DNA from: Plasmodiophora brassicae
Taxonomy: Eukaryota
Length of the DNA: 64,000 nucleotides
Direction: 5' to 3'
Assembly: GCA_036867785.1 (NCBI GenBank)
Contig: CP145409.1
Location: 930,001 to 994,000, forward strand
Shown here: piece by piece, positions 50,463 through 58,296 of the stretch
How positions within the stretch are numbered: position 1 is the first letter of the stretch
Layout of the letters: every line of letters begins with the position of its first letter
The notes under the pieces: model-generated
Database searches by the model: none
Told to the model about the DNA's origin: nothing
The model's input: only the letters and a program-made list of their open reading frames with translations
Made by a program: the position numbers and the translations under genes

Positions 50463-51060
50463 TCAAACGTTCGACTCTGCGATTGGTGGATACACTGGTG
50501 GACTGGAAATCGAGGAGTCCTCGTAGTTGTGACCAACGGAACCGTTTGTAGTCGTTAACGTCCTGCAAAGTTCGTGTGCGGCCAAAGCAGGCACTCCCTG
50601 CGTTTGGATCAGCTCGAATCCAGGTGCCCATCGGGTGTGTACGTCGTGGCTTAGCAGCATGCAACCTCGCAATGCGTTGCCGATAGGGCACGCCTATCGG
50701 CAGCTATCACTTCTGCGACGTGGCCGGTCACGATTACGACCTACCTCCATGGGCTAAACGGTCGACTTGGACCTGAGCGTCCCGTCTTGGAGGCAGACCT
50801 CGTAGTTGCCAAAGTTCAGGCCGGCGTTGACGCATACGGTATATACTCAGCAACTGCCGTGCGGTGTGCTGCGTCCACTGGACTCGGATCCGCGAAATAG
50901 AACGTTACGCCGTTGTCGACGTCGACCAAGACCACGCAACCGGACAGCTTGCCGAACGCTAACTGGAACACGCCGTCGAACACCTCGTCGTACGACGCGC
51001 CCAACGACTGCAACGACATATGCGCCCAAACGACTGCAACGCTGTACGCACGCTATGACA
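50463..51060 (-). pseudogene. Decayed YbjN-like paralog
   Basis: LQSLGASY..FQLAFG..AVAEYI / VNAGLNFGNYEVCLQDGTLRSK / LRGCMLLSHDVHTRWAPGFELIQ parallels the gene at 56136-56728. Has a frameshift and an in-frame TAG. Confidence 0.75.
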
Positions 51061-55557: not shown

Positions 55558-56102
55558 ATGGGATGCTGCCACAGCGCCGCTGCCGTCCAGCCAGTAAACG
55601 GGGCCGTCGAGATCGACAACCTCGCCGAGATTCCGGATGATGCTGCCGACACCAACAGCACCGTGTCCGGGTCGGAAGAGGATGCACGCCTGACCGGGCC
55701 GCCCGATATCGAACCCGGCGACGCTGTCACTCCAGTCGAGATTGCACCGGAGAACAACGACATCAAAGGTCGGCCGCCCATCGTCTGCCTAGGCCGCCCC
55801 ACTGATCGCATGGACTGCAGACCTGTTCGAGAGGTACAAGGTGGCACCCGTCCAACCAGCGTCAGCGGTTGTGCAACCGAGTGAAAGGGCCTGGAGGACA
55901 ACACTGGACGACGACGCCGGCATCGAGAGCGACGACAACGACAATGGGTCTTCGCCGGTACGCTTCGTGCGATTCAGTTCGCCAATCGGCTAACCCGTCG
56001 CGCGCCTCCAGATCGGGTTCCTGCACTTGTCGACAGCGTTAGTGGAGCAGCAACAGCAGCAGCAGGTGTCCGGCGAGGACGCCGTATCGACACCCTCTTA
56101 AT
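55558..56102 (+). CDS. Small acidic protein with MGCC N-terminal acylation motif
   Basis: MGCCHSAAAVQP start and acidic low-complexity body. The 3' exons are uncertain. Confidence 0.5.
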
Positions 56103-56135
56103 AAGCGACCCGTCGCGGTTTAGTGTACGAGCGGA

Positions 56136-56728
56136 TCAGTAGGCGCGGTCCATGCCGCGAATCACGTCACGAAGCGCCTGCAATTCGGCGACGTTGGGCT
56201 GGGAGCTGATCGTTGCCCCCGTCGTCAACGGCAGCATCGCCGTCTTGCACGTGCGGTAGGCGTCGTCGGGCGACGTGCCCTGTTGCACCAACGCGAACCC
56301 GGGCACCCAACGCGGGTACACGTCTTGTGCCAGCGTTAGGCACGATTTCAATGGAGCGGCGATGTCGCTGGCCTGTTCGAACCGCATCACAACGATGTAC
56401 ATTGCACGCGAGCAGGAGTGACCTGAGCCGCCTGAACCGACATCTTGAATCGGATCTGGCCGTCAGCGAAGTTGAACTCGAAGTTGCCAAAGTTTAGGGC
56501 GAAGTTCACCCGGATGATGTACTCAGCCATGGCCTTCCGATGCGAGACGTCGACCTTATTCTGGTGGACGACGTAGAAGACGACGCCCTGATCCCGTACC
56601 CGGATCAGGCAGGACGGCAGGCCACCCAGTGCGAACCGGAACAGCGACTCGTTCGGCTCGGTGTACGACACACCAAGCGACTGCAGGACTGCACGAACGC
56701 TGTCCTGCTTCAGGCGCTCGTGCGACAT
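56136..56728 (-). CDS. YbjN-domain (CesT/T3SS-chaperone fold) protein, copy 2
   Basis: HRKAMAEYIIRVNFALNFGNFEFNFADGQIRFK, intron ~56373-56422, then exon ..VYPRWVPGFALVQQGTSPDDA. Confidence 0.75.
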
Positions 56729-56798
56729 CGTTCACCGACTGTCGTCACACCCAGGGAGAGGCCACTCCCTCTACCGGTACCTGCCTGCATTGAATGTA

Positions 56799-57215
56799 TT
56801 AGGCGAGGGCACGAAGCTTCGGCACGACGTCTTGGAACGATTCCAGGCACGCCTTCATGTGGTGTGTGAAGATCGGCTTGATGTCGGCCATGTCGTAGTA
56901 GAACGCGGACGCCTTGAAGCGGATCTCGCCGTCGCTGAAGTCGAGCTCGAAGTTGCCGGTGGACAGGGCCCAATTGTTTCGGACGAGCATCTCGGCGACG
57001 GGCAGACGCGCCATCTCGGGCAGCAGAAACAGGGCCACGTTCCGGATCAGCAACAGGCACCGGTCGGTCCACTCGATGACGACCTTCTGCTCTATGGCCA
57101 GGTTCGTGATCACGAACGTGATCCGGTCCGACGTGATGACGCCCGTCGAATAGTCCAACTTGAGATCGTCCAGCACCGACAGGATCTGCGACCGGTAGTC
57201 GACGCCGGTTGTCAT
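56799..57215 (-). CDS. YbjN-domain protein, copy 1 (138 aa, intronless)
   Basis: RLPVAEMLVRNNWALSTGNFELDFSDGEIRFKAS matches the YbjN pattern R..V.E.L.R.N....GNFE.D..DGE.R. Confidence 0.8.
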   Translation of the reverse strand: MTTGVDYRSQILSVLDDLKLDYSTGVITSDRITFVITNLAIEQKVVIEWTDRCLLLIRNVALFLLPEMARLPVAEMLVRNNWALSTGNFELDFSDGEIRFKASAFYYDMADIKPIFTHHMKACLESFQDVVPKLRALA

Positions 57216-57324
57216 GCCAGACCTGCCACTTCGCCAACAACGAACAGAAGCGCAGCTGTTGCCAACCAGTCACTGATCCCACGGTCGCGAGGCCTCTTTC
57301 TCGTCGGTCGTGCTGCGACGAACG

Positions 57325-58296
57325 ATGAGCAGCAGCTGCGACCCTTGGGGCACCAACCATGGCATCTTGGCGTTGTCGTCGAGCAGCGACAACGAGGGTG
57401 CCACCGTACGGCCCCGGCGTCGCAAGACGTTACGCCCATCGAGGAAGTCGTCGTCCTCGTCGCGGTTCGAGCCGGTGCCACCTGCCGGCAGCGCCGAAGG
57501 TCGCCGGCCAACGGTGATCAGCCGGGACCCCAGCCTGCGAAGCCTGCAGGCCGCCCTGCACCTTAGCGAACGCGAGCGCCTGAGCCAGATGGATCGCATC
57601 GAGCGGTTCCAGACAGCGCTGGTAGCGCTCCAGGAGCAATCGCTGGACTTCGTAAGTCTAGCAACGGTCGCCTTGCTGACAGGGTCGTGATGCTTGTTCC
57701 CGCAGATGGAGAGGACCCTGGACCGGATCGAAGACCTGCAGCGGGATCGCGCCGACCTCTGCGCATTGCTTGCCCGGTACGAGAGCGAACAGAACGACCT
57801 GGTGCACCGGCTCCAGGACGGGACCCGGCAGTGGTACGATCGCGATCAGGAGGGCGCCGTTCAGGCGCCCGCCCTTATCCTGCATCGGCATCATCGGCGG
57901 GCGACCATGATCATCGACCCGAAACGGATGTCGTACCGGGAGTTGAGACGGATACGCGACGATTTATGCAACGCGTTCTCGGTCGGCCTGCAATGGCGAC
58001 AACCCGACCGCGACGAACGCCAACGGTTCCGGGCCGCCATCGCTGAGGGCCTGCGGCACCGTCGTCGAGAACGTCGACCATCATCAGCGCCGGTGGAGCA
58101 ACGCCAACCCGATTCGAGGATGGCGGCGCTGGATGAGCGGTGCATGGATGCGTTACGGCTGCCGGTATGCGCACCGGGTCGGGTGCGGTCCGCACCGGAT
58201 GGCCACGTACGCGACCACGTTGGCGAGTCCCTGCTCCATAAGATGCAGATGATACATGTCGGGTCGATGACGAGGACGTTCCAGAGGCGGTCGTAG
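57325..58296 (+). CDS. Hypothetical coiled-coil protein
   Basis: Two coding exons joined by a gtaagt...cag intron (~57652-57705). Confidence 0.55.

Follow-up and report, generated by a model that had tools for sequence, protein, structure and literature searches.

Within a 64,000-nt stretch of the Plasmodiophora brassicae genome (contig CP145409.1, positions 930,001 to 994,000), hereafter the window, two neighbouring genes, which we call A and B, are real, separate and strongly diverged paralogues. We think it probable that they are eukaryote-resident members of the YbjN family, that they derive from an old duplication, and that they likely act as a dimeric, client-binding adaptor. All coordinates are positions within the window, and both genes lie on its minus strand. 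Gene A (56799..57215) is an intronless coding sequence of 138 aa that ends in TAA and specifies a divergent A-type YbjN-fold protein, while gene B (56136..56728, with its ATG at 56728) encodes 180 aa once a 50-nt intron is removed. An initial annotation of this DNA, made from the sequence by a model, had described two co-oriented genes about 70 bp apart, and the spacer between the A stop and the B start (56729..56798) measures exactly 70 nt on the same strand. It had also named a TGA two codons before the second ATG as an argument against a single fused gene; the B-frame codons ahead of the ATG read AGT CGG TGA ACG, and this in-frame stop is therefore real. In addition, the reading frames of A and B differ (offset 1). 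Exon 1 of B (56423..56728, 102 codons) spans the YbjN domain from helix a1 through strand b5, the intron (56373..56422, 50 nt) is of the GT..AG type with its AG at 56374-56373, and exon 2 (56136..56372, 78 codons plus the stop) encodes helix a3 and two further short helices, followed by a variable linker and then by a C-terminal motif that is conserved. Joining 56728..56423 to 56372..56136 yields 180 codons that are in frame and stop-free. BLASTP aligns A with exon 1 of B at 31% identity over 95 aa (expect value, E, 1e-12), as is fitting for the duplicated and strongly diverged copies that had been proposed.

The motif that the initial annotation saw in both proteins was found at residues 70-101 of A (56913..57008) and, by sequence alignment to A, at residues 64-95 of B (56444..56539). 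It corresponds to helix a2 plus the b4-b5 hairpin, where the family is most conserved. In a 98-row family alignment N81 and G87 are invariant and E75, R79, N88, F89, E90, D92, D95, G96, and R99 are each at least 90% conserved; A keeps 11 of these 11 positions and B keeps 10, with N replacing D92. According to the AmyR structure paper, the most conserved region of the family is helix a2 together with the following loop, and this region forms the dimer interface. From this mapping, the motif common to A and B is the signature of the family and a likely dimerisation surface, and is not peculiar to the pair.

The assignment of A and B to the YbjN family (PF10722) is made by profile homology. An eight-row profile built from A, B, and close relatives matched 3172 proteins at E<=1e-3 and 487 at E<=1e-10 in a set of 1.84 billion representative proteins, from which the best 150 of the 3172 matches were listed, and PF10722 lies above its 22-bit cut-off in 38 of the 46 top profile matches scanned. 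When a profile was made from 86 relatives without any A-type, B-type or Preaxostyla rows, A scored 78.4 bits and spliced B 100.9 bits, and 100 shuffled controls reached at most 2.3 bits against the same profile. As a caveat, the 86 rows had themselves been selected because they resemble A and B. The spliced 180-aa B protein matches the family profile over residues 1-148. The PF10722 scores of the orthologues range from no match up to 22.0 bits, the Paratrimastix relative discussed below (P0135) scores 28.9 bits, and YbjN clusters account for 29 of 30 feature matches in the ESM Atlas. No CesT-type Pfam family matched the window proteins at E<=1, and NCBIfam returned no meaningful match. The proposed PF10722 assignment is thus borne out by strong profile matches, though the single sequences fall below the Pfam cut-off. 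The family is overwhelmingly bacterial, with members spread over many phyla, and to this extent the earlier description of YbjN-like proteins as mainly prokaryotic also stands.

The predicted structures lead to the same family, as judged by AlphaFold2 models. The model of A, computed from the 98-row alignment, has a mean predicted local distance difference test score (pLDDT) of 96.4 and the topology a-b-b-b-a-b-b-a (a, helix; b, strand), and its best Foldseek matches are DR1245, 2plg, several type III chaperones, E. coli YbjN, and AmyR. The fold of B was judged from P0157, a spliced orthologue that shares 65% identity with B over 147 columns; the core of the P0157 model has pLDDT values above 90, and it shows the topology of A, to which two short helices and then a disordered tail are added at the C-terminus, with matches to Spa15, YbjN, and AmyR. 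Gene A ends directly after helix a3 and lacks the two short C-terminal helices of the family. As exon 2 encodes helix a3 and the extra helices, the domain is interrupted by the B intron and made whole by splicing. The a-b-b-b-a-b-b-a fold is nearest to the solved YbjN proteins and also qualifies as the class I chaperone fold, and A and B are accordingly modelled as having the YbjN/class I type III chaperone fold, in line with the YbjN/CesT-type fold of the initial annotation. Inspection of the N-termini revealed no signal peptide or membrane segment in either protein, and this, together with the compact models, indicates that A and B are probably cytosolic.

Evidence for transcription comes from public sequencing runs, of which 20, from 11 studies, hold all or part of the stretch; four were compared (X1, X4, X5, and X15). 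It should be noted that the RNA type of a run is a predicted label and that contigs without an intron are taken as spliced RNA; a retro-copy would look identical. Contigs of X1, X4, and X5, which belong to three different studies, skip exactly the 50-nt B intron, and the same contigs also lack a second GT..AG intron, of 54 nt (57652..57705), which belongs to the divergent neighbour gene; both introns are retained in X15, a near-identical, DNA-like run. Over gene A the contigs are colinear with the genome, meaning that A has no intron. The pairing of one intronless gene with one that carries a spliceosomal intron is thereby upheld, and with RNA-type contigs of three studies covering both genes, the pair does not fail for want of expression. 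If the intron-less contigs represent spliced RNA, both genes are transcribed and the B intron is used. None of the four runs contains a joint connecting A to B. At the edges of the spacer, contigs of X4 and X5 end at 56782/56785 on the A side and at 56733/56744 on the B side, which is a weak hint of separate mRNAs and not proof of them, while one X1 contig spans the spacer and is colinear with the genome.

Close relatives of the pair are few, with three A-type proteins at 64-75% identity and three B-type proteins at 66-71%. P0002 and P0008 are both on a 1420-bp contig and P0003 and P0006 are both on a 2704-bp contig, each from the same source, and we infer that each of these pairs shares one contig on which the A and B genes are neighbours. 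Each of the four genomes visible (the window and three that are eukaryote-like) has kept both types, which are adjacent in three of the four, two by the inference just given. More distant relatives are P0011, P0014, and P0070 of the A type and P0009, P0136, P0010, and P0158 of the B type. An intron site after the residues QAAQ is common to window B, P0007, P0008, and P0006; P0007 is annotated as spliced at the site used in the window, and P0008 reads through an in-frame insert of 54 nt there. L012 (4977-5570, plus strand of its own contig), P0010, and P0158 break right after GNFE, with L012 continuous over the site used in the window, and P0009 is continuous over both sites. From these differing positions we conclude that introns have been gained or lost within the B lineage.

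The closest named relatives are from Paratrimastix and Trimastix, informative names being available for three of 30 proteins (the third is a Deltaproteobacteria metagenome-assembled genome), and more members from eukaryotes may exist. P0135 is KAJ4459503.1 of Paratrimastix pyriformis, labelled 'YbjN domain-containing protein' and filed under Preaxostyla, Metamonada, and P0080 is the EukProt entry of Trimastix marina, an organism that we take to belong to Preaxostyla as well. In a FastTree analysis of 187 domain rows, the A, B, and Preaxostyla rows fall in one starred 54-row set. For IQ-TREE this set, minus its partial rows, was combined with 26 rows of other clades to give 74 rows, and the A clade (support 100/100, on a very long stem of 2.08 changes per column) and the B clade (100/99) were both recovered. 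A branch with support 95/59, which is not starred, places A, B, three Preaxostyla-type rows, and L013 opposite 57 other rows. Of the seven named bacterial loci (L015, L016, L018-L021, and L017, the last titled only 'uncultured bacterium'), five are among the 57, and the other two fall among 21 rows grouped with Enterocloster; the genome of L015 is flagged as unpublished, and no result rests on L015 alone. Forcing an exclusive clade of A and B lowers the log-likelihood by 16.2 units, and this arrangement is not rejected (p-value of the approximately unbiased test, p-AU, 0.189). Given the long branches, and with only five of the 57 opposite rows coming from named bacterial records, we read the tree cautiously, as fitting one eukaryote-side branch with an old duplication. 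The Preaxostyla proteins resemble A and B in being eukaryotic family members that share one side of the 95/59 branch with them; they are more canonical, scoring 131.7 and 144.8 bits against the profile that gave 78.4 bits for A and 100.9 for B, and their rows group clearly with neither type (71/35 support).

The genomic setting agrees with long residence in a eukaryote. The window has a G+C content of 57%, and the genes found up to about 8 kb away are of eukaryotic type (UCH, a ubiquitin hydrolase; a PRMT-type arginine methyltransferase; TRM13; a protein with ankyrin repeats; and a PQ-loop protein). At third codon positions the G+C content (GC3) of A is 0.90 and that of B 0.82, compared with 0.57-0.77 in six neighbouring open reading frames, which may reflect the codon bias of well-expressed genes. 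The best identities to bacterial loci are 41-61%, over only 31-72 aligned residues. In the tree A and B are not nested in one bacterial clade, they have no close bacterial relatives, and they do not lack eukaryotic features. The initial annotation had taken the genes to be horizontally acquired. Of this, the overwhelmingly bacterial make-up of the family still speaks in its favour, and a recent import does not stand in view of the eukaryotic neighbours, the orthologue pairs, the varied B introns, and the Preaxostyla relatives; the phylogeny that it had called for, with A, B, and Preaxostyla opposite the 57 other rows, lends no support to a recent bacterial import either. The A and B genes are long-standing residents of their genome and not a fresh bacterial import.

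Two alternatives would remove the pair as a eukaryotic pair altogether, and we give little credence to both. That the genes represent bacterial contamination, or a very recent bacterial insertion, might be read from the mostly bacterial family and from a GC3 above that of the neighbours, but it is contradicted by the removal of a spliceosomal intron in RNA-type contigs of three studies, by the extension of the same contigs into a neighbouring spliced eukaryotic gene, by the eukaryotic-type flanks, by orthologues of both types with varied intron positions in relatives, and by the limited identity and short alignments to the nearest bacterial loci, so that we consider it scarcely credible. Hardly any more probability attaches to the idea that A and B are one gene for a two-domain protein, spliced or mis-annotated. 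It is true that two YbjN domains do occur in one protein in eight of the 150 matches listed (P0012, P0013, P0015, P0020, P0023, P0043, P0092, and P0139) and that one X1 contig bridges the spacer. That contig is colinear with the genome, however, and fusion by splicing is contradicted by the TAA that ends A, the different frame of B, the TGA ahead of its ATG, and the absence of an A-B joint in the four runs; in addition, the orthologues are called as separate proteins. The natural fusions are informative in another way. With FastTree the two fused domains pair up as mutual nearest relatives for P0015 and P0139, and for P0012, P0092, P0023, and P0043 they are placed in separate clades, and two-domain fusions therefore arose several times. 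Like A and B, the fused proteins place two diverged YbjN domains side by side; they do so in a single polypeptide, whereas A and B are two genes with their own stop and start codons.

We now put forward a hypothetical mode of action for the pair. A and B probably belong to a small eukaryote-resident branch of a mostly bacterial family, and the A/B duplication is probably old. The B protein keeps the canonical domain, with a eukaryote-type C-terminal tail added, and the A protein has probably evolved rapidly, losing the final two short helices. The solved family members suggest, by analogy, that dimerisation of each protein most likely involves helix a2 and the b4-b5 hairpin, and the resulting dimer would bind an extended stretch of a client protein as a holder or adaptor. 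The publications consulted were PMC5398634, PMC13466201, and PMC9503650. In the AmyR paper, the solved YbjN relatives are dimers and the type III chaperones with this fold bind their client peptides in extended form, wrapped round the dimer, and DR1245 is described as a partner of DdrB. Which subunits would pair is a matter on which analogy gives tentative answers. An A-B heterodimer is a serious possibility that falls somewhat short of an even chance, and it is made plausible by the retention of both types together, often adjacent, and by the two-domain proteins among the listed matches. Separate A and B homodimers are also possible, and we would put their chance at roughly one case in three.

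Several points weigh against the reading of A and B as old, eukaryote-resident YbjN paralogues with an adaptor role, and keep our confidence in it well below certainty. Searched singly against Pfam, A has no PF10722 match and exon 1 of B reaches 14.6 bits (E 0.039, cut-off 22), and the choice of the 86 profile rows by similarity to A and B qualifies the stronger profile scores. In the PDB, neither a sequence search nor searches with two profiles returned a significant match. Support for joining the eukaryote rows with A and B, whose branches are long, is only 95/59, and this grouping could partly be long-branch attraction. On a 21-kb metagenome contig the A orthologue L001 and the B orthologue L012 lie 7.3 kb apart on opposite strands, which means that A-B adjacency is not required. 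Finally, the function of YbjN is, according to a review, unsettled even in bacteria.

It is rather doubtful, in our estimate, that A and B no longer cooperate, each forming its own homodimer with its own client, so that their adjacency is a leftover of tandem duplication. This explanation draws on the description of solved YbjN proteins and most class I chaperones as homodimers (AmyR paper), on the separated L001 and L012, on the weak hint from the X4 and X5 contigs that stop between the genes, and on the differing C-terminal parts of A and B. It has to account for the presence of both types in all four genomes seen, with adjacency in three, for a full interface motif kept in both proteins, and for the natural fusions in eight of the 150 listed matches. 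Far less probable still is a dedicated effector-secretion chaperone of an intracellular parasite, as a eukaryotic counterpart of SycN-YscB-type heterodimers. The presence of the window sequence in runs under six different organism codes would fit a parasite that was sequenced along with its hosts. In structure and in sequence, however, the best matches are YbjN proteins and not secretion chaperones, the AmyR paper sees no connection of YbjN proteins with type III secretion, neither A nor B shows a signal peptide or membrane segment, and the neighbours are of the housekeeping type, with no secretion-system or effector gene among those scanned within about 8 kb of the pair. The named relatives Paratrimastix and Trimastix, moreover, are organisms that we take to be free-living flagellates. 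The handling of effectors suggested in the initial annotation consequently finds no evidence here. Compared with the class I type III chaperones (CesT, SycE, SicP, and Spa15), which score structurally below the YbjN proteins against A and B, the two proteins are eukaryotic and lack a CesT-type Pfam match at the threshold given above; since neither a secretion system nor an effector gene lies close by, they are not to be classed as type III secretion chaperones. Within that chaperone class, SycN-YscB (1xkp) shows that one working chaperone can be built from two different subunits of the fold.

Close known counterparts of the pair are the solved YbjN proteins, namely Deinococcus DR1245 (4h5b), Synechococcus T110839 (2plg), E. 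coli YbjN (6vu7), and Erwinia AmyR (5fr7). A and B share with them a significant profile homology and the same conserved region of helix a2 and b4-b5, and B, like these proteins, retains the C-terminal helices that A is without. Unlike them, A and B are encoded by a eukaryote, one of the two has an intron, they are kept as an A-type/B-type pair, and their single sequences stay below the Pfam cut-off; the linker and conserved C-terminal motif of B are seen only in B-type orthologues. To call the pair an undescribed system, as the initial annotation did, is an overstatement, since what has been established is a pair of divergent eukaryotic members of a known family. A more specific proposal, which we regard as unlikely, combines these elements. 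A and B would form an obligate asymmetric heterodimer equivalent to a 'split' fused YbjN protein, the C-terminal helix of B would have a docking or autoregulatory role on its flexible linker, the genes would represent a eukaryote-specific branch common to plasmodiophorid-like Rhizaria and Preaxostyla that is either early or was passed from eukaryote to eukaryote, and the complex would hold a specific unfolded client, possibly tied to the parasite life cycle.

In the literature searched, no publication on eukaryotic YbjN proteins was found, and what may be new is a conserved A-type/B-type pair documented in a eukaryotic lineage and linked to Preaxostyla sequences. YbjN is, according to the review, the most widespread bacterial branch of the secretion-chaperone fold, with no settled function. 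The present data show that one eukaryotic lineage has long kept two diverged copies, has given copies introns, and transcribes both. The pair thus offers an operon-free two-protein system for asking what the fold binds, and it marks a patchy gene family common to two distant eukaryotic groups. In a plasmodiophorid plant parasite it is also a candidate for lineage-specific biology, with no tie to infection seen here. Plasmodiophorids parasitise the roots of beet and crucifers. The database entry for the B orthologue P0007 gives it as a partial protein of sugar beet, from a contig of 508 bp.

A third, B-like copy, here called C, was located by a six-frame profile scan of the window at 50463..51019 on the minus strand, about 5 kb from the pair (E 1.5e-5 and 1.9e-4). 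It aligns with B in three pieces (BLASTP, E 2e-17, 8e-9, and 4e-12). Relative to B, a 2-nt insertion within helix a2 puts it out of frame, and three codons ahead of the intron a TAG stands in place of the CAG of B; there are also substitutions at conserved positions, and a GT..AG stretch (50694..50744) occupies the place of the B intron. Copy C is probably a pseudogene, and to judge from its sequence it looks like a decaying local duplicate of B, made at the DNA level after the intron had been gained.

Some further observations concern the surroundings of the pair and the ends of its genes. Conserved synteny at L001 was considered and rejected, as the neighbours there resemble MORN-type repeat and IQ-motif proteins (by reading of open reading frames) and are unlike those of the window. 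The last 16 residues of B (56139-56186, minus strand) form the C-terminal motif, which is conserved in the B orthologues L012 and P0009, sits behind the variable, low-complexity linker, and is absent from A-type proteins; that it could serve as a docking peptide is speculation. RNA-type contigs of X1 and X4, from two studies, end exactly at the last base of the B stop codon, 56136, and positions 55800-56135 are covered by no contig of X1, X4 or X5. These ends would mean that the 3' untranslated region is very short, or they may stem from misassembly at a poly(A) tail. On the other side of the pair, the divergent gene at 57325-58296 (plus strand) has its ATG about 110 nt from the start of A, with 57216-57324 lying between the two. 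Its second exon has no Pfam match, and contigs run across it and gene A; the arrangement suggests that A and this neighbour share a bidirectional promoter region.

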